32,000 nt of DNA from Psychrobacter sp. HD31 (GTDB taxonomy: Bacteria; Pseudomonadota; Gammaproteobacteria; Pseudomonadales; Moraxellaceae), in contig NZ_CP142525.1 of NCBI RefSeq assembly GCF_051097895.1, positions 1,710,001-1,742,000 on the forward strand, given 5' to 3'. The notes under the pieces were generated by a model. It saw only the letters and a list, made by a program, of their open reading frames with translations, did no database searches and was not told the origin of the DNA. The position numbers and the translations under genes were made by a program. This document shows, in pieces, positions 2-29,352 of this stretch. The first letter of the stretch is position 1, and each line of letters opens with the position of its first letter.

Positions 2-133
2 GGCAGAGGATTTGGATTGATTAGCTTAAAAGAAAGAGTCGCGATTTTGGATGGGCATCTTTTTATTACGTCGCAGTTAAATCAAGGTTGTAAAGTTAAA
101 ATATGGTTACCGATATCCTCAACGAGTCACTAA
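2..133 (+). CDS. Sensor histidine kinase, C-terminal fragment (5' end lies upstream of the window)
   Basis: Frame 2 reads GRGFGLISLKERVAILDGHLFITSQLNQGCKVKIWLPISSTSH-stop (TAA 131-133). GxGFGL..ER is the G2/ATP-lid end of HATPase_c as found in NarX/LiaS-type kinases, the class that partners NarL/FixJ regulators. Confidence 0.6.
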   Translation, partial: GRGFGLISLKERVAILDGHLFITSQLNQGCKVKIWLPISSTSH

Positions 134-152
134 GGACAACTGACTCGTTGAG
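118..152. terminator. 12-bp perfect inverted repeat between the convergent kinase and regulator genes (possible bidirectional terminator)
   Basis: CTCAACGAGTCA (118-129), an 11-nt loop, then TGACTCGTTGAG (141-152). The left arm overlaps the last kinase codons. There is no clear U-run on either side. Confidence 0.4.
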
Positions 153-163
153 ACATTGTATAA

Positions 164-793
164 TTATATGATCTGATTTTTTATGGCAAAGGTTACGGCT
201 TGCGTACGGTTTGATACACCAAGCTTTACAAAACAGTTGGCTAGATGAAAACATACCGTTCTTTCAGTGATGCCCAGTTGATGGGCAATTTGCTTATTTA
301 AGTCGCCATTAATAATACATTTAAGGATTTCCCGTTCACGGTTAGTAAGCTTAATATCTGTGGAATGATTTTGTAACTCGCTAACGGTTTCTATTAAGAA
401 CGGAGAAATAAACTGACCGCCAGAGTTTACCTCTTGAATGGCTTCTAGCAAATCTTCAAAGGCATTGTCTTTTACAACATAACCATTTAATCCCAGTTGT
501 AATAGTTGGTTTGCTCGATAGGCATCATTGAGCATGGTTAAAGCAATGACCTTGGTATCCATCTGATTATCTTCAATAAATAGAATGAGCTCATCAATAG
601 ACGTGCCTGGCATTGATAAATCTACTAATGCAACATCAGGTTGGAAGGTTTTTATTAATGACAAAGTATCTGAACCATTATTGGCACTGCCTTGCAGCTC
701 TGTCCATGGTAGTTTATCAAACAACACGCTTAGCCCATCTAAAAATATTTGATGGTCGTCTGCAACAATAAGCGTGATAAGAGAGTGACACAT
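164..793 (-). CDS. NarL/FixJ (LuxR-type HTH) family response regulator
   Basis: N-terminal receiver domain (LIVADDH, phospho-acceptor context VALVDLSMPG, conserved K in GYVVKD). C-terminal LuxR HTH (LTNREREILKCIINGDLNKQIAHQLGITERTVCFHLANCFVKLGV). Confidence 0.85.
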   Translation of the reverse strand: MCHSLITLIVADDHQIFLDGLSVLFDKLPWTELQGSANNGSDTLSLIKTFQPDVALVDLSMPGTSIDELILFIEDNQMDTKVIALTMLNDAYRANQLLQLGLNGYVVKDNAFEDLLEAIQEVNSGGQFISPFLIETVSELQNHSTDIKLTNREREILKCIINGDLNKQIAHQLGITERTVCFHLANCFVKLGVSNRTQAVTFAIKNQII

Positions 794-22980: not shown

Positions 22981-23919
22981 ATGAGTAAAACCAGAGCCGT
23001 TAACCCACGCCAACCAAAATCAATACCTAAAAATGATGAGCCAGAATATGTGTTTGATTTTCGTCAAGCCATGCTGGCACGTGGGCTATCTGTGCGCACT
23101 CGCAATGCCTATGTAAAAGACTTAACCAGCTGCCAAGCCACTAGTCTAAAGGCATTACCAAACTGGCAAGATAAAGATGTGATTGCCTGCTTAAGCCAGC
23201 TGAGTAGTGAGGGCAAAACCGCACGCACCCAAGCCAGAATGCTATCAAGCTTACGCCAGTTTTTTTTGTGGTTAGTTAATACCGAGCAAAGGAAAGACAA
23301 CCCTTGCGAAAAAATTAAAACCCCAAAGCTTGGGCGTGCCCTGCCAAAAGACTTAAGCGAGGCAGATGTAGAAAACCTGCTACTTGCGCCAGATATGAGT
23401 ACATCACTGGGTTTAAGAGACAAAGCCATGTTAGAGGTGTTGTATGCCTGTGGTTTGCGTGTGTCTGAGCTGATGAACCTATCGTTAGAACAGGTTAATT
23501 TAAATGCTGGTGTACTTAGAGTCACCGGCAAAGGCAATAAAACACGGCTGGTGCCATTGGGGGAGTATGCCAATGAGGCATTAGAAAACTATTTAACTCA
23601 TGCCCGTAATGATTTGGTTGCACACCTTAAGTCTGGTGATTGCCAAGCTGTATTTTTAACCGCTCAGGGTGGTTATATGACTCGGCAAAACTTTTGGTAT
23701 ATGATTAAAAAATATGCCAAATTGGCAGGCATACAAAAAGATTTATCACCGCATAGCTTACGCCACGCCTTTGCGACTCACTTACTTAACCATGGGGCAG
23801 ATTTGCGTAGTGTGCAGTTGTTGCTTGGGCATAGCGATTTGTCTACCACACAAATATACACGCATGTTGCAACGGCACGTTTGCAGGCATTGCATGAGGC
23901 ACATCATCCAAGAGGGTAA
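22981..23919 (+). CDS. xerD: Tyrosine recombinase XerD
   Basis: Colinear with the remembered E. coli XerD: LRDKAMLEVLYACGLRVSEL, VTGKGNKTRLVPLGE, HSLRHAFATHLLNHGADLRSVQLLLGHSDLSTTQIYTHVA, and the C-terminal HHPR. Confidence 0.9.
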   Translation: MSKTRAVNPRQPKSIPKNDEPEYVFDFRQAMLARGLSVRTRNAYVKDLTSCQATSLKALPNWQDKDVIACLSQLSSEGKTARTQARMLSSLRQFFLWLVNTEQRKDNPCEKIKTPKLGRALPKDLSEADVENLLLAPDMSTSLGLRDKAMLEVLYACGLRVSELMNLSLEQVNLNAGVLRVTGKGNKTRLVPLGEYANEALENYLTHARNDLVAHLKSGDCQAVFLTAQGGYMTRQNFWYMIKKYAKLAGIQKDLSPHSLRHAFATHLLNHGADLRSVQLLLGHSDLSTTQIYTHVATARLQALHEAHHPRG

Positions 23920-24355: not shown

Positions 24356-24973
24356 ATGCACATTATTTATTTACACGGGTTTGATAATACCAGTAACTCT
24401 ATTAAAGGTGGGCTTTTGGTAGACTATATCCAAAAAAGTCATCCAAACCATCAAGTGCATTGCCCTGATTTAAATTTAAAACCTGCCGAGGTGTTGGCTA
24501 AGGTCACTAAGTTGATTAATGAGCTTAGTCAAACCGATAAGGTCGTGTTGGTAGGCAGCTCGTTAGGTGGTTATTTTTCTACGCATTTAAGTAACCAGCT
24601 TGGTTGCCCAGCGTTATTATTAAACCCAAGTGTTGCACCACACACCACGCTTACTCGTTTTTTTGCCGATGGTAAAACCTATGGCGCTGATGATGAGGTA
24701 TTTTATACGACGGTTGGTGATTGGAATGTCACTTATGGCGATATGCGCTGGGTTGCAGACAATCAGTTATTAACGGTTAACCACCCAAATAAAATTGCAG
24801 TTTGGCTAAAAACCGCTGATGAGGTTCTTAATTATCAAGTGGCAGAAAGTTTTTACGGTAGCAATGGCGTTAAGCAATTAATAATCCATGAGGGGGGCGA
24901 CCACCGCATTGCAGACTTCGATGAGCATTTGGATATGGTTTTGGAGGTTTTAAATAATCTTGTAAGTGGGTGA
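24356..24973 (+). CDS. yqiA: Esterase YqiA (UPF0227 alpha/beta hydrolase)
   Basis: IIYLHGFDNTSNS...VLVGSSLGGYFSTHLS...LLLNPSV.P...GGDH is colinear with the remembered E. coli YqiA. Confidence 0.85.
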   Translation: MHIIYLHGFDNTSNSIKGGLLVDYIQKSHPNHQVHCPDLNLKPAEVLAKVTKLINELSQTDKVVLVGSSLGGYFSTHLSNQLGCPALLLNPSVAPHTTLTRFFADGKTYGADDEVFYTTVGDWNVTYGDMRWVADNQLLTVNHPNKIAVWLKTADEVLNYQVAESFYGSNGVKQLIIHEGGDHRIADFDEHLDMVLEVLNNLVSG

Positions 24974-24977
24974 TTTT

Positions 24978-24990
24978 AGTTAATGGTTTA
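24978..24990. repeat. Left copy of the 13-bp direct repeat AGTTAATGGTTTA flanking the yqiA-parE insertion
   Basis: Exact match to 27283-27295. It begins 5 nt after the yqiA stop codon. Confidence 0.6.
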
Positions 24991-25054
24991 AATGTTAAGA
25001 AACAAGCAATTTATCAAACCTTAATATATTTTTGTTAGGTGTTTCTATTAAATA

Positions 25055-25765
25055 TCAAAATGGTAAATCAACAGTAATATTTTCATTTATTTCAGTAGGG
25101 ACTATAAAGTCAATATTTCTTAGATGTTCTAAGATATCCCTATAAAGAGCCATCGATTTCTCTAAATACTCTTTGGGCAAGTCATCCGATTTGAGATAAA
25201 ATTTATTCTCAACGTCATAAAATTCAATATTCTTTCCAAAATCATTTAATAACTTCTTTTTATCTTGTTCATCTTTATATGTGGAATTATCATGAATAAT
25301 CTTATTTCTTAGTTGCTGAAACTGGCCCAATCTTGGTTTATGTTTATTTAATAAGTCTTCACTTAGTCCCGTTGTTAATTTTAAATAATTAAGTCCCGAT
25401 TTAATGTAATCTCGTCCATTTAGAGAGGAAATATCGAGTTTGCTTTTAGTTTTTTCTTGAATTAATTTACTAAGTTGAAATAATTGATTTTCAAAAAATG
25501 AATGTACCAAAGTAATCGACGAATGGTAATAAAATGAGTTTATAGATCGAAGTTGAGTTTCATAAAGGTCATTTACACGAGTTTGTTCTTCTGGTTTTTC
25601 TTCTATTTCTTGATTTAAAGAATATTCAAGCTTATCTATTGTTGTTTCAACTCTATTAGAATTTAAATCAAAATACTTCAATAGGTAATTAAATTCCTTT
25701 TGTAATTTATTTTCATAGCTTTCAAATGAAAATCTTTTTTGTATAGTATTTTTATATGTAAACAT
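25055..25765 (-). CDS. HEPN-like domain protein (R-N-x3-H motif); function unknown, putative RNase or abortive-infection-type toxin
   Basis: 236 aa, predicted helical and K/E/N-rich. The C-terminal half carries QQLRNKIIHDN, the canonical R[NHD]xxxH HEPN signature. There is no signal peptide and no adjacent MNT or antitoxin ORF. Confidence 0.55.
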   Translation of the reverse strand: MFTYKNTIQKRFSFESYENKLQKEFNYLLKYFDLNSNRVETTIDKLEYSLNQEIEEKPEEQTRVNDLYETQLRSINSFYYHSSITLVHSFFENQLFQLSKLIQEKTKSKLDISSLNGRDYIKSGLNYLKLTTGLSEDLLNKHKPRLGQFQQLRNKIIHDNSTYKDEQDKKKLLNDFGKNIEFYDVENKFYLKSDDLPKEYLEKSMALYRDILEHLRNIDFIVPTEINENITVDLPF

Positions 25766-25879
25766 TTATCTCAATATTTGGTAGCCTACGACAAACGACT
25801 TTTATATGTTTTGTACGGCTGTAATTTAAAGCAACTTGTCAAATCATGTTATTAGTTATTTAACGTAAAAGCAAGCCAA

Positions 25880-25899
25880 GTAGGGTGCGTTCCATGCAC
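25880..25899 (+). repeat. REP element (GTAG-type hairpin), downstream flank of the RayT gene
   Basis: GTAGGGTGCGTTCCATGCAC. Its reverse complement matches 26501-26520 at 18 of 20 positions. It has an internal GTGCGT/ATGCAC stem. Confidence 0.65.
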
Positions 25900-25910
25900 A
25901 GTTCTAAAAA

Positions 25911-26454
25911 CTACTCTAACTTATCTGACATACTATTATCAAATATAACACCTTGTCCCCAATCACTCGTATATACTCCTTTGTTAACATAACGATGAAA
26001 ACTTGAATATTGCCAATCTCTTACATGTGTCACTAAGCCATGTTTTACAGGATTGTAATGTAAATAATCAATATGTTTTCTGAAGTCGGCAGCATCTTTT
26101 ATTAGATGTTCATAAAAGCGACGTTGAAATATACCTTTTTCATTTCTTTTAACTTTTGAATAGCTTAATTCTTCTATAGGTAAATGATATTGAGGGCATA
26201 ATTTGGTTGTTCTACGTTTTATTTGTGACCAGCATTGGCTGTAATTGGTATTATTTCCCAAATACAATGTAGGTGGTCTGGTAATTGCACCCACATGCAA
26301 TTATTTTAAATGGATAGTTTTTTTGTGTTTCTTTGATACTTGCACGTAATGCTTTTAAAAAGTCAGGATTGGTAAATATTTTTCTACGTTGATAAGACAC
26401 CAAGGTAAAAAAGTAGGTTGCTCCTTGCGTATATGACCGTATGTAACGTGACAT
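25911..26454 (-). pseudogene. REP-associated tyrosine transposase (RayT/TnpA-REP, IS200/IS605 Y1 family), disrupted by two small frameshifts
   Basis: The N-terminal ORF (MSRYIRSYTQGATYFFT...PFKIIA) and the C-terminal ORF (NNTNYSQCWSQIKRR...RRFYEHLIKDAADFRKHIDYLHYNPVKHGLV..DWQYSSF) are colinear with the remembered E. coli RayT (YafM). The HUH motif is encoded in the third frame as WVQLPDHLHCIW (26258-26293). Confidence 0.8.
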
Positions 26455-26500
26455 TTTTTGTTCAATTAAGTCCTTTTGTTATGGGCATTATAGAGCATTG

Positions 26501-26520
26501 GTGCGTGGGACGCACCCTAC
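26501..26520 (-). repeat. REP element (GTAG-type hairpin), upstream flank of the RayT gene, inverted relative to 25880-25899
   Basis: The plus strand reads GTGCGTGGGACGCACCCTAC, so the minus strand reads GTAGGGTGCGTCCCACGCAC. It forms a perfect GTGCGT-ggg-ACGCAC hairpin. Confidence 0.65.
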
Positions 26521-26625
26521 TTACTTAACAGCTCAAGGTTAGGCTAAATAAACAACTTGAGATTGCAAAAGTTGTTGATGTTTAACAACCCCAAAACAAA
26601 TATACATATCTATTTTTAGTAAATA

Positions 26626-27210
26626 TTACTTAGCCTGAATATTAGGTAATTCAATATTTCCAACTTTTTTTACAAGATTTGCCTTAGTCGTAACAATTGT
26701 ATTCAAAAAAGTATTTTTCTCTTCCTCATTTGATACATAGTTGCGATACGAGTAGGCGTATAGAACTAAATAATTTCCAGATTCATTTTTCTCATTTCTG
26801 TATCTATAAATATTCCATTCATAAATATTTCCACTACTTAAGATGAATTCAAGAACTATTTCTTTCCCATACTCAAACTTCTCGTAACTGACAATGGGAT
26901 TAATGCTTTTCCAACCTTCTAACTCATTAATTTTTCCATTAGCGACATATATTGCTGGAAAATCTCCTTTTATAGCTTCTACCATTAGCATTTTTTCATA
27001 CTCTGGCAAGCTGTCATTTTTTCTTAAATATTCTTGCTTATAATATTCTTTTGATGGATGAGAACTCCATTTAAGTTCGTATACTTCTCCATTAAATTCA
27101 ATTTCTTTTCCTATAGATAAATATTCAGTTGGTTCAGAGTTAGCGTTTGCAGTTGTGATAAACAATACACTTAAAAAACTAACTGCAAAAAATATATAAA
27201 TGTTTTTCAT
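26626..27210 (-). CDS. Hypothetical secreted protein
   Basis: Type I signal peptide MKNIYIFFAVSFLSVLFITTANA|NS. The mature part is rich in Y/E/N/K, with no motif I recognise. Confidence 0.55.
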   Translation of the reverse strand: MKNIYIFFAVSFLSVLFITTANANSEPTEYLSIGKEIEFNGEVYELKWSSHPSKEYYKQEYLRKNDSLPEYEKMLMVEAIKGDFPAIYVANGKINELEGWKSINPIVSYEKFEYGKEIVLEFILSSGNIYEWNIYRYRNEKNESGNYLVLYAYSYRNYVSNEEEKNTFLNTIVTTKANLVKKVGNIELPNIQAK

Positions 27211-27282
27211 GATTAAAATGTCTGTTTGAATGTTTGCTAACGTCTCGATAAACGATATGATGAATGTTTATTTGGAGTTATA

Positions 27283-27295
27283 AGTTAATGGTTTA
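27283..27295. repeat. Right copy of the 13-bp direct repeat AGTTAATGGTTTA
   Basis: Exact match to 24978-24990. It lies 158 nt upstream of the parE ATG. Confidence 0.6.
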
Positions 27296-27372
27296 TTTAA
27301 CAATATTATTTGTTATTTAACCAAATATCAAGCTAAAAGATAATACCAGCCAATATCTATAAATCCCCACAA

Positions 27373-27401
27373 TTGGTTATGTCGCCTTTTTTAAGTATAA
27401 T
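27373..27401 (+). promoter_or_regulatory. Candidate sigma-70 promoter for parE
   Basis: TTGGTT (27373-27378), a 17-nt spacer, then TATAAT (27396-27401), about 52 nt upstream of the parE ATG. Confidence 0.45.
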
Positions 27402-27453
27402 GGATTAATTGTTTGATATAGATGTATCGTAGGACTATAAAAATAGGACACCC

Positions 27454-29352
27454 ATGAGCCAAAATCAAAACTACAACGCCCAATCTTTAGAAGTATTAGA
27501 AGGGCTTGAGCCAGTGCGTCGTCGTCCAGGGATGTACACAGAAACCACACGCCCAAATCACCTAGCACAAGAAGTGATAGACAACTCGGTAGATGAGGCG
27601 TTGGCAGGCTATGCCAAAAGCATAAAAGTGCAACTGCATGATGATGGCTCGTTGTCGGTAGAAGATGACGGACGAGGCATGCCAACCGATATTCATCCAG
27701 AGTTTGGGCAATCGGGCATTGAACTTATTTTAACTCGTTTGCACGCAGGCGGTAAGTTTTCTACCAGCAACTATCAAGTGTCTGGCGGTTTGCATGGTGT
27801 GGGTATCTCCGTAGTTAATGCCTTATCTACCCGTGTAGAAGTGACCGTATGGCGAGGTGGCACTCAATATGACATGGCGTTTGAAAACGGCACACCCGTT
27901 ACGCCACTTAACGAGTCTGTTAGCTCTAATAAACGCAAACGTGGTACAAAAGTGCGTTTTTGGGCAGATGAGCAGTTTTTTGACTCGCCAAAATTTAGCG
28001 TAAAACAATTAAAGCACAACCTAAAAGCCAAGGCAGTACTGTCGGCTGGGTTGTCTATCGAGTTTGTTGACCATATCAATGATGAAAAAATAGTTTGGCA
28101 GTTTAGCGATGGCGTAATTGAATATTTAAATGAACAACTCGATGGGTTAGAAACCTTACCATCAGAGCCATTTTATCATGACTACGAAGCAGCCAAAGGG
28201 GAGCGAGCAGGGGCAACTTTTGCCATTAGCTGGTTACCAGAAGGTGGTACACCAATACAAGAAAGCTATGTTAACTTAATCCCAACGGCACAAGGTGGTA
28301 CGCATGTTAACGGATTGCGTACAGGTATTTTAGAAGCCTTGCGAGAGTTTTGCGAAATCCATAATTTATTGCCACGCAATATAAAACTGACAGGCGAAGA
28401 TGTATGGGATGGCGTTAACTATATATTATCGCTTAAATTTTCGGAGCCACAATTTTCTGGGCAAACCAAAGAACGTTTATCTAGCCGAGAGGCAGCAGGG
28501 GCAGTGCAGGCCATTGCAAAAGATGCGTTTAGTTTGTGGTTAAACCAGCATGCCGATATGGGCACACAAATTGCTGAGCTTGCCATTAGCAAGGCAGGCA
28601 AACGCCTAAAAAGTGCTAAAAAAGTGGCACGTAAAAAAATTACGCAAGGTCCTGCCTTGCCCGGTAAACTTGCCGACTGTAAAGGCGACTTAAAAGAAGG
28701 TGCAGAGCTGTTTTTGGTAGAGGGGGACTCTGCTGGAGGCAGTGCCAAGCAAGCACGTGACCGCCATTTTCAGGCAATTTTGCCATTGCGAGGTAAAATT
28801 TTAAATACCTGGGAGGTATCTTCTGATACGGTGCTATCTAGTCAAGAAATCCACGACATCGCCATAGCGATAGGTGTTGACCCAGCCAGTGATGATTTGA
28901 GTGAGTTGCGTTATGACAAAGTGTGTATTTTAGCCGATGCGGACTCAGATGGCTTGCACATTGCCACTTTGATTTGTGCCTTGTTTGTTAAACACTTTCC
29001 TACCCTAATTGAAGAAGGGCACTTATATGTAGCCATGCCACCTTTGTATCGTGTGGATATTGGTAAAGAGGTGCATTATGCCCTTGATGAACCAGAGTTA
29101 GAGCAAATACTCGCTAATGCGCCAAAAAACAAAAAGCAGTCCATCACTCGCTTTAAAGGGCTGGGTGAAATGGATGCCGACCAGCTTAGAGAAACCACCA
29201 TGAACCCAGATACCCGCCGATTGGTGCAGCTAGACTTAGATGACTTAAATCACACCAGTGAGGTGATGGACATGCTACTTGCCAAAAAACGCTCGTCTGA
29301 CCGTAAATCTTGGTTAGAACATAAAGGTGATTTAGCTGAGCTGGCTGTTTAA
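27454..29352 (+). CDS. parE: DNA topoisomerase IV subunit B
   Basis: 632 aa type IIA topoisomerase B subunit: LEGLEPVRRRPGMYT, the GHKL ATPase region EVIDNSVDEA...DDGRGMP...GGLHGVG, the Toprim motifs EGDSAGGSA and ILADADSDGLHI, and the C-terminal RFKGLGEM. Its size and position next to yqiA favour ParE over GyrB. Confidence 0.9.
   Translation: MSQNQNYNAQSLEVLEGLEPVRRRPGMYTETTRPNHLAQEVIDNSVDEALAGYAKSIKVQLHDDGSLSVEDDGRGMPTDIHPEFGQSGIELILTRLHAGGKFSTSNYQVSGGLHGVGISVVNALSTRVEVTVWRGGTQYDMAFENGTPVTPLNESVSSNKRKRGTKVRFWADEQFFDSPKFSVKQLKHNLKAKAVLSAGLSIEFVDHINDEKIVWQFSDGVIEYLNEQLDGLETLPSEPFYHDYEAAKGERAGATFAISWLPEGGTPIQESYVNLIPTAQGGTHVNGLRTGILEALREFCEIHNLLPRNIKLTGEDVWDGVNYILSLKFSEPQFSGQTKERLSSREAAGAVQAIAKDAFSLWLNQHADMGTQIAELAISKAGKRLKSAKKVARKKITQGPALPGKLADCKGDLKEGAELFLVEGDSAGGSAKQARDRHFQAILPLRGKILNTWEVSSDTVLSSQEIHDIAIAIGVDPASDDLSELRYDKVCILADADSDGLHIATLICALFVKHFPTLIEEGHLYVAMPPLYRVDIGKEVHYALDEPELEQILANAPKNKKQSITRFKGLGEMDADQLRETTMNPDTRRLVQLDLDDLNHTSEVMDMLLAKKRSSDRKSWLEHKGDLAELAV

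Follow-up and report, generated by a model that had tools for sequence, protein, structure and literature searches.

A candidate stand-alone HEPN protein with an SSB-tip-like C-terminus in a lineage-specific islet of Psychrobacter sp. HD31

The DNA considered here, called the window below, is a stretch of 32,000 nucleotides from Psychrobacter sp. HD31 (assembly GCF_051097895.1, contig NZ_CP142525.1, positions 1,710,001 to 1,742,000 of the forward strand). Between yqiA and parE it holds an AT-rich islet whose cargo consists of three genes, all on the minus strand: a gene for a protein of 194 amino acids (aa), a gene for a REP-associated tyrosine transposase (RAYT) and ORF236, an open reading frame (ORF) for a protein of 236 aa (Table 1). 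An initial annotation, made from the nucleotide sequence, had described ORF236 as an orphan HEPN-like protein and a candidate single-gene toxin or abortive-infection effector. Here we describe its family, the grounds for placing it in the HEPN superfamily, and a C-terminal peptide that resembles the tip of SSB, the protein that binds single-stranded DNA.

Table 1. Features of ORF236, of the islet that carries it and of the islet borders
Feature	Residues of ORF236	Position in window	Strand	Basis
Stand-alone gene filed in the HEPN superfamily (ORF236), 236 aa		25055..25765	-	ORF, coding signature, family, invariant residues, model
Helix	15-56			AlphaFold2 model
Helix carrying E92	58-106			AlphaFold2 model
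Alpha-hairpin (helices 15-56 and 58-106), predicted HEPN helices 1 and 2	15-106	25448..25723	-	Predicted structure, E92
E92 codon, invariant acidic residue of helix 2, predicted active-site auxiliary	92	25490..25492	-	Alignments A2, A3
Short insert helix, within insert 107-135	120-132			AlphaFold2 model
Helix ending in R153...H158	136-158			AlphaFold2 model
R153-N-K-I-I-H158, predicted catalytic Rx4H motif at the end of helix 136-158	153-158	25292..25309	-	Alignments, model
Loop	159-165			AlphaFold2 model
Helix	166-179			AlphaFold2 model
Beta-hairpin	180-191			AlphaFold2 model
Helix	195-216			AlphaFold2 model
Strand	220-223			AlphaFold2 model
Low-confidence C-terminal tail, D-L-P-F-COOH tip at 25058-25069	224-236	25058..25096	-	AlphaFold2 model, low pLDDT, motif statistics
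Non-coding stretch upstream of ORF236, presumed promoter and 5' untranslated region		25766..25877	-	No conserved RNA element found
REP-RAYT-REP unit, inverted REP-like arms at 25878-25899 and 26501-26522		25878..26522	-	NCBIfam NF047646 (1.5e-26), Pfam Y1_Tnp
194-aa co-cargo gene, signal-peptide-like N-terminus MKNIYIFFAVSFLSVLFITTANA...		26626..27210	-	AT-rich
Left direct repeat, overlapping the yqiA stop codon, core at 24978-24990		24969..24990	+	
Right direct repeat, core at 27283-27295		27274..27295	+	
yqiA-type esterase (UPF0227), left flank		24356..24973	+	Pfam PF05728 (1.4e-32)
parE (topoisomerase IV subunit B), right flank		27454..29352	+	Identity to Psychrobacter ParE

ORF236 begins with ATG, its stop codon lies at 25055-25057 and its N-terminus contains no hydrophobic segment, in agreement with the coordinates and the lack of a signal peptide first given for it. 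The gene has a GC content of 0.259. Compared with its homologues, identity is highest at second codon positions (0.71-0.86), lower at first positions (0.63-0.74) and far lower at third positions (0.39-0.51), which identifies ORF236 as a true coding gene under purifying selection. AlphaFold2, run on an alignment of 90 sequences, returned a model with a mean predicted local distance difference test score (pLDDT) of 93.9 and a predicted template modelling score (pTM) of 0.87, with all five models at 92 or above. The protein had been thought to be all-helical. It is indeed predicted to be mostly helical, but the model also contains a small sheet of four strands, contributed by the N-terminus, the hairpin 180-191 and the strand 220-223.

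As a single sequence, ORF236 finds no match in Pfam, NCBIfam, PADLOC, PHROGs or the PDB. Six close clusters were found among the 5.8 billion searched (53-100% identity), one of them from Marinifilum fragile (Bacteroidota). An exhaustive hidden Markov model (HMM) search with the alignment of the close homologues, carried out in a space of 1.8 billion representatives, recovered 297 representatives at E <= 0.001, of which 51 lie at or below 1e-10 and seven at or below 1e-30. Judged from these sequence searches, the family is rare, comprising about 300 representative clusters, and is without annotation or curated model; no Pfam, NCBIfam or PADLOC model matches the subfamily of ORF236. The gene occurs in Psychrobacter, in Marinifilum and other Bacteroidota, and on one Vibrio plasmid, and a single distant match came from the JGI metagenomes.

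The sequence LRNKIIHDN, in which RNKIIH spans residues 153-158, had been singled out as an R[NHD]xxxH signature of HEPN ribonucleases (RNases). Of 156 relatives, 148 have RNxxxH at the homologous position and the remaining eight are fragments, so the motif in ORF236 is no chance match. Across 90 full-length relatives, whose mean identity to ORF236 is about 20%, the only invariant columns are E92, R153, N154 and H158. The columns of S82 and C99 are near-invariant. At residue 99 (codon 25469-25471), seven residues past the invariant E92, ORF236 itself has a serine, and at least 90% of the relatives, including all five close homologues, have a cysteine.

HEPN domains are bundles of two alpha-hairpins with frequent inserts between helices 2 and 3. 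They carry an Rx4-6H motif with a polar residue (N, D or H) directly after the arginine, and helix 2 contributes a further conserved acidic residue, often within Ex3[K/R], that lies near this motif (PMC3710099; Anantharaman et al. 2013). ORF236 shows the motif with its polar residue as R153-N154...H158. In the predicted structure, a helix (136-158), a loop (159-165) and a second helix (166-179) follow each other in the HEPN order, and residues 107-135, which include the short helix 120-132, form an insert before helix 3. The invariant E92 lies within the helix 58-106.

Several relatives are linked to HEPN families by profile. A distant one, P0145, matches the profile of the ORF236 family at 1.4e-6 among the 1.8 billion representatives and scores 27.1 bits against the Pfam family HEPN_Cthe2314 (PF18730), which is exactly the gathering cut-off. 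Aligned with hhalign, the group of ORF236 (A1) and the group of P0145 reach a probability of 97.2% (E 3.4e-11). The PADLOC model RTasHEPN is matched by 37 of the 90 relatives, at best with 3.2e-6, and by the family consensus with 2.4e-7, the aligned region running from the insert through helix 3, where RNxxxH lies, to helix 4. Other, weak matches of relatives are mostly to HEPN models and include RiboL-PSP, Csm6/Csx1/CARF-HEPN, HepT-like and pEK499_p136.

A number of results speak against a HEPN assignment. E92 stands in the context ENQLF and not in Ex3[K/R]. ORF236 and its nearest relatives reach no curated HEPN model on their own; ORF236 has no match to PF18730 at E <= 1, the cut-off of that family being reached only by P0145. 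A scan of the HMM consensus against Pfam, which served as a stand-in for a profile-profile comparison, gave RiboL-PSP only (E = 0.026). Searches of PDB sequences with the profiles A1, A2 and A3 returned coiled-coil and designed-bundle noise and no HEPN protein, and a Foldseek comparison of both models with the PDB gave nothing significant, the best HEPN structure being Csm6 (6TUG, E = 0.67). Further word-indexed database searches yielded few new sequences and no Pfam-labelled HEPN member, and thus no independent HEPN alignment for hhalign. The profile and structure searches by which the initial annotation had proposed to confirm the fold therefore gave a divided answer: relatives do reach HEPN models, but no PDB structure of a HEPN protein is matched significantly and ORF236 itself matches no curated family.

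Taken together, the invariant RNxxxH motif, the glutamate of helix 2, the predicted topology and the HEPN profile links of the relatives argue for the HEPN superfamily, as originally suggested. On these sequence and model grounds we file ORF236 there as a member of a separate family that has no curated model and belongs to no named Pfam or PADLOC family.

The N-terminal 140 residues had been left unassigned and considered as a possible sensor or auto-inhibitory part. The full-length relatives align across this region, and according to the model residues 1-140 are no separate sensor but part of the catalytic domain, namely HEPN helices 1 and 2, with E92, and the insert before helix 3. The first hairpin is predicted to be unusually elongated (42 and 49 residues), and by this length part of it may project as a stalk, still within the catalytic domain.

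Two observations on the fold stand beside this assignment. The sole significant structural neighbour of the model is A0A8S5LJP3 in BFVD, an uncharacterised virome protein of 215 aa from Myoviridae sp. ct6F13 (Foldseek E 4.2e-4, TM scores 0.56 and 0.61, 14% identity). In five relatives (P0132, P0137 and P0163-P0165), DUF6548 (PF20185) gives repeated weak matches over the RNxxxH helix (E 0.001-0.08), and this family may be an unrecognised HEPN-like one.

ORF236 ends in ...TVDLPF, with a single acidic residue. In all six close homologues an acidic stretch is followed by [L/I]-P-F at the very end, and one of them, P0005, terminates in DDDLPF. Of 166 representatives, 35 have an exact [L/I/M/F]-P-F C-terminus; among the 41 full-length ones that rank best, it is shared by 29. 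In the background of 939 non-family ORFs of the examined loci there are two such ends. Within the 35 tail-bearing proteins, position -2 is proline and position -1 phenylalanine throughout, position -3 is L, I or M in 34, position -4 is D or E in 32 and position -5 is D or E in 21. Pairwise identity amounts to 70% over the last five residues and to 7% over the preceding twelve. The distance from the catalytic histidine to the C-terminus varies between 74 and 109 residues, and the ten C-terminal residues have an average net charge of -2.3 with the tail and of 0 in relatives without it. The tail of the model has a pLDDT of 43-70. The fixed tip, the variable linker and the low model confidence together are typical of short linear motifs carried C-terminally on flexible linkers.

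Such an end is familiar from SSB, whose C-terminal tips read DDDIPF in E. coli and DDDLPF in S. aureus SsbA and serve as a docking hub for many genome-maintenance proteins (PMC5872125, PMC10573954). Both end exactly in [I/L]-P-F after a run of acidic residues, and both have a poorly conserved, apparently flexible linker. They differ in what carries the tip, which is an OB-fold binder of single-stranded DNA (ssDNA) in SSB and a predicted RNase domain in ORF236. A reading of the tail as a beta-clamp-binding or FtsZ-tail-like peptide was rejected, as there is no Gln-Leu core and the exact C-terminal P-F comes closest to SSB. In the searchable literature we came across no toxin or defence protein described as having an SSB-tip-like tail. 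Judged from the conservation of its sequence, the tail, which the initial annotation had not mentioned, is the likeliest candidate for a regulatory element of ORF236. Two points count against this: the tie between tail and SSB is one of sequence resemblance, and an acidic C-terminal xPF motif could serve another purpose.

The two background ORFs that share an [ILMVF]PF end (L043:2684-3163 and L064:503-1075, both on the plus strand; 159 and 190 aa) belong to an unrelated second family from Psychrobacter and end in ...GFDTNIPF and ...FGDNVPF. They are not SSB, have no Pfam match and look winged-helix-like by eye. SSB-tip-like tails may thus be a wider, unrecognised device.

The tail is found in none of the 45 relatives of at least 300 aa (e.g., P0058, P0062, P0069, P0157-P0160). 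These long forms have an N-terminal region of about 100 residues of their own and an extra C-terminal domain of about 150 aa, which often ends in a hydrophobic strand (...IKIMFS, ...IEIMLYP). It seems that different modules can be joined to the C-terminal side of the effector core.

HEPN toxins are commonly accompanied by a second gene, and the initial annotation had noted the lack of any partner ORF of 60 aa or more next to ORF236. The window bears this out: there is no ORF of at least 60 aa in 24974-25054 or 25766-25910, none besides the RAYT flanks ORF236 inside the islet, and no minimal nucleotidyltransferase (MNT) antitoxin gene adjoins it. Between homologous loci, similarity at the DNA level starts at the start codon and ends at the ORF borders. 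In every host the gene is AT-rich (25-31% GC), more so than its surroundings. Its immediate neighbours differ from locus to locus and include an 8xMP-like membrane protein, a TIR/Nuc_deoxyrib_tr-like protein, DUF4440, HNH, SACS/NOV_C, IS110 and housekeeping genes, and no neighbour family was found to recur among the homologous loci. An antitoxin encoded as a gene within the gene is unlikely, since no internal methionine is conserved. A scan for promoters and terminators was uninformative, with no enrichment of promoter-like sites upstream of ORF236. Within the limits of sequence evidence, ORF236 behaves as a true single-gene cassette, the form in which the gene moves between distant bacteria.

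The insertion of the islet can be reconstructed. GC content is 0.290 in 24974-27453, against 0.393 elsewhere in the window. A 22-nt direct repeat (82% identical) bounds the 2,305-bp insertion that makes up the islet; the exact 13-nt core of the repeat, AGTTAATGGTTTA, has no further copy in the window. The gap between yqiA and parE measures 2,480 bp; removal of one repeat copy and the intervening DNA, 2,305 bp between repeat starts, leaves 175 bp and restores the ancestral arrangement. In 79 of 80 Psychrobacter species yqiA directly precedes parE with a gap of about 120-200 bp, and ORF236, the RAYT and the 194-aa gene are absent from the gap in those 79. These loci were located by a genome scan with a ParE query (a YqiA query gave none), and ParE of the window is 87-90% identical to that of other Psychrobacter. 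The islet is thus lineage-specific, and ORF236 lies in it next to a mobile-element remnant, as had been assumed.

This remnant, the RAYT gene (25911-26454), is frameshifted near 26251-26300 and thereby split into overlapping ORFs of 67 and 129 aa. The inverted REP-like pair of 22 nt that frames it occurs nowhere else in the 32-kb window. The 194-aa protein matches nothing in Pfam, NCBIfam, PADLOC or PHROGs, and its gene is absent from the homologous HEPN loci. A 34-nt direct repeat (79% identical) lies at 25846-25879, upstream of ORF236 and abutting the left REP arm, and again at 27303-27336, just outside the right islet repeat. Possibly an ORF236 cassette was there first and received the REP-RAYT-REP unit and the 194-aa gene in a separate insertion, but chance in AT-rich DNA could also produce such a repeat.

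A gene for an XerD-like recombinase (22981-23919, plus strand) abuts the DUF1289 gene in the window. With xerD nearby, a Xer/dif-like site was considered for the islet repeat and dismissed, since by eye it agrees with only about 7 of 11 positions of the XerD arm consensus. No xerD homologue was found upstream of DUF1289 in the 80 Psychrobacter loci (L011-L090). Many of these contigs break off at a distance of 0.5-1.5 kb upstream of DUF1289, which points to a repeat at that place. To the left of yqiA, too, the source lineage has a different local gene order.

Several homologues reside in defence or mobile surroundings, in line with the defence-cargo context first proposed. P0006 (53% identical, L004) lies directly downstream of PD-Lambda-5 A and B (6e-34, 4.6e-117) and near a RhuM-type PDC-S05 gene. 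P0003 (64%, L007) follows a protein with a weak match to a TIR effector (3.9e-5), and P0002 (69%, L006) abuts IS110. On the conjugative plasmid pA of Vibrio nigripulchritudo (L097), a family member with RNQIVH at residue 153 and a family-HMM score of 90 bits is located between Mokosh MkoB (7e-148) and Gabija GajA/GajB. A further relative (L100) comes after a SACS/NOV_C protein, and a long-form relative (L101) sits on an integrative and conjugative element beside HNH, MC2 and CTD6 genes. The sample is small, and the link to conflict loci is suggestive. Other data point away from it: some relatives have housekeeping neighbourhoods (L001, L091, L096), the plasmid search gave a single relative only, and there were no relatives in 50,697 INPHARED phage records or, with four queries, in IMG/VR. 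One relative, P0163 (L098:1-14102, L099), was observed in a long same-strand array of small ORFs without Pfam match, next to a gene with a faint match to RHS repeats; the array is reminiscent of polymorphic-toxin/immunity cassettes.

By a narrow preference, we regard ORF236 as a latent single-gene HEPN RNase that acts in defence or conflict. We infer RNase activity, dimerisation, toxicity, a defence role and all functions of the tail along the following lines. ORF236 would dimerise like other HEPN RNases and so form a cleft with R153, N154 and H158, together with E92. It would be latent in uninfected cells and, having no linked antitoxin, such an enzyme must be intrinsically latent. A cue from a phage or mobile element would then trigger cleavage of cellular and/or invader RNA (tRNA, rRNA or mRNA), metal-free and with 2',3'-cyclic phosphate ends as is general for HEPN chemistry (PMC3710099), and this cleavage would lead to growth arrest in the manner of abortive infection.

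Control of ORF236 is probably exerted through the SSB-tip-like tail, to judge from its sequence. In place of a linked antitoxin, the tail may act as a pseudo-substrate for the basic cleft or as a tether to a host SSB-partner protein. It could also be a bait for proteins that dock on SSB tips, such as phage recombinases, helicases, exonucleases or host SSB partners, whose binding would switch the RNase on. By analogy, two precedents make an SSB axis plausible. The single-gene HEPN system DARNA (PD-T7-3) is activated by ssDNA that is presented by phage SSB (bioRxiv 10.64898/2026.02.22.705581), and escape mutants of AbiJ, likewise a HEPN protein, map to genes of phage single-strand-annealing proteins. 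Recombineering annealases are reported to depend on the host SSB tail.

A more specific proposal, which we put forward tentatively and regard as doubtful, is that the tail serves as a decoy: a HEPN RNase without a partner would thereby be its own sensor, and the SSB interaction hub would be guarded by mimicry. At rest, D-L-P-F-COOH would fill the basic R/H cleft, in cis or across the dimer, or would hold the enzyme on a host SSB partner. Upon infection, the decoy would be seized by those phage products that have to bind host SSB tips (RecT/Erf-type annealases, helicases, exonucleases, primosome hijackers), and the RNase set free in this way would abort the infection. The 150-aa domain of the long-form relatives would then be an alternative sensor head on the same effector.

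ORF236 might instead be a harmless HEPN protein, either of narrow specificity or non-catalytic (RNA processing, RNA or nucleotide binding, a dimerisation scaffold), which its tail recruits to SSB-associated replication or repair. Taken at face value an SSB-tip-like tail is a recruitment signal, no antitoxin was found, and stable housekeeping contexts exist, with the context of P0164 being kept in 24 contigs; the HEPN domain of AbiA provides a precedent, being enzymatically inactive and serving dimerisation. We nevertheless consider this unlikely. That R, N, H and E are strictly invariant speaks for catalysis having been retained, and the family is very patchy across phyla, with few close clusters in a vast search space. 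The gene looks foreign in every host, its insertion is absent from nearly all Psychrobacter species compared, and the family recurs beside defence systems and mobile elements. A second alternative would make ORF236 an orphan in appearance only, neutralised by a non-coding RNA (ncRNA) beside the gene or antisense to it, as in type III toxin-antitoxin (TA) systems or AbiF and AbiV. Several "single-gene" HEPN abortive infection (Abi) proteins did prove to be controlled by ncRNA, and there is room for one in the upstream non-coding DNA, which measures 145 bp in the window, 395 bp in L007 and 800 bp in L001. In L004, however, 15 nt separate the start codon from the end of the preceding gene, and in the window a REP element occupies part of the upstream stretch. 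Moreover, Rfam, including its abiF-type motifs, matches nothing in the islet or in five homologous loci, and these five (proteins 53-69% identical) share no flanking sequence and contain no tandem repeats. An RNA antitoxin thus appears rather improbable.

Most improbable in our view is that ORF236 is a stranded part of a multi-gene system, inert or decaying, be it the partner of a UG22/DRT-type reverse transcriptase or a piece of a polymorphic-toxin cassette. This would accord with the resemblance of 37 of 90 relatives to RTasHEPN, with the small-ORF array beside the RHS-like gene in one relative and with the state of the adjacent RAYT, a pseudogene. The subfamily of ORF236, however, misses the RTasHEPN model, no reverse transcriptase is listed in the islet or in any examined homologue locus, and the islet contains no more than its three genes. 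ORF236 is also full-length, has its invariant residues and its tail intact, and retains the pattern of purifying selection towards homologues of 53-69% identity.

HEPN RNases are among the commonest effectors of bacterial immunity. Those that stand alone are known to be kept in check by an antitoxin, either protein or RNA, by covalent modification or by a large sensor domain. In the family of ORF236 none of these means was seen, and what is conserved instead is a copy of the SSB docking peptide at the exact C-terminus. If the tail controls the enzyme, RNA-level abortive infection would be tied to the SSB interaction hub, and if the decoy proposal were true, it would amount to a new logic of single-gene immunity. 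If the tail is irrelevant, ORF236 represents one more HEPN family in a small islet, of value for annotation and unsurprising. Its compact size, 236 aa, makes it a candidate for tool development. HEPN RNases in mobile islets are a known kind; a minimal single-domain HEPN protein without a partner, with an SSB-tip-like peptide in whose place paralogous lineages carry a separate domain, is a combination for which we found no description in the literature.

Among known systems, the best-supported sequence link of the family is to PADLOC RTasHEPN (PDLC03820). This is probably the HEPN-like partner of the UG22 defence reverse transcriptases, an equation that we draw from the description in PMC9226505 and not from PADLOC documentation. 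The subfamily of ORF236 differs in falling below the model, and ORF236 is solo, with no reverse transcriptase in its islet. HEPN_Cthe2314 (PF18730) and RiboL-PSP-HEPN (PF18735) resemble ORF236 in being small, mostly stand-alone bacterial proteins, and relatives of ORF236 reach both models. RiboL-PSP-HEPN is distantly related to AbiD/AbiF, and for Cthe_2314 no architecture or partner is listed (PMC3710099). ORF236 itself scores with neither and is distinguished by its 42/49-residue hairpin, its sheet and its tail. HepT of the HepT-MntA systems is likewise a small HEPN RNase toxin with an Rx4H motif. To our knowledge, it is always paired with a minimal nucleotidyltransferase antitoxin, whereas none adjoins ORF236, and the sole similarity is a match of one distant relative to HepT-like at 0.086.

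AbiF, AbiV and AbiD/F proteins are, like ORF236, small HEPN proteins, and they were long taken for single-gene abortive-infection systems. AbiF, AbiV and probably AbiD/D1 are in fact type III TA systems with an upstream ncRNA (PMC13064643, PMC12373285). They are thus neutralised by ncRNA, whereas no such element was detected for ORF236, which also matches neither Abi_2 nor abiF. DARNA is a single-gene HEPN abortive-infection tRNase of 456 aa that forms a dodecamer and has an ssDNA-binding C-terminal domain of about 300 aa (bioRxiv 10.64898/2026.02.22.705581). The PD-T7-3 models in PADLOC match neither ORF236 nor any of its 90 relatives, and in place of an ssDNA-binding domain ORF236 has only a short SSB-tip-like peptide. 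The two are alike in being single-gene HEPN proteins with no antitoxin, and they may meet on the SSB/ssDNA axis, to which DARNA is tied by its activation and ORF236 would be tied by its tail. The SSB interaction hub is sensed in different ways by Retron-Eco8, Hna, AbpAB and DARNA.

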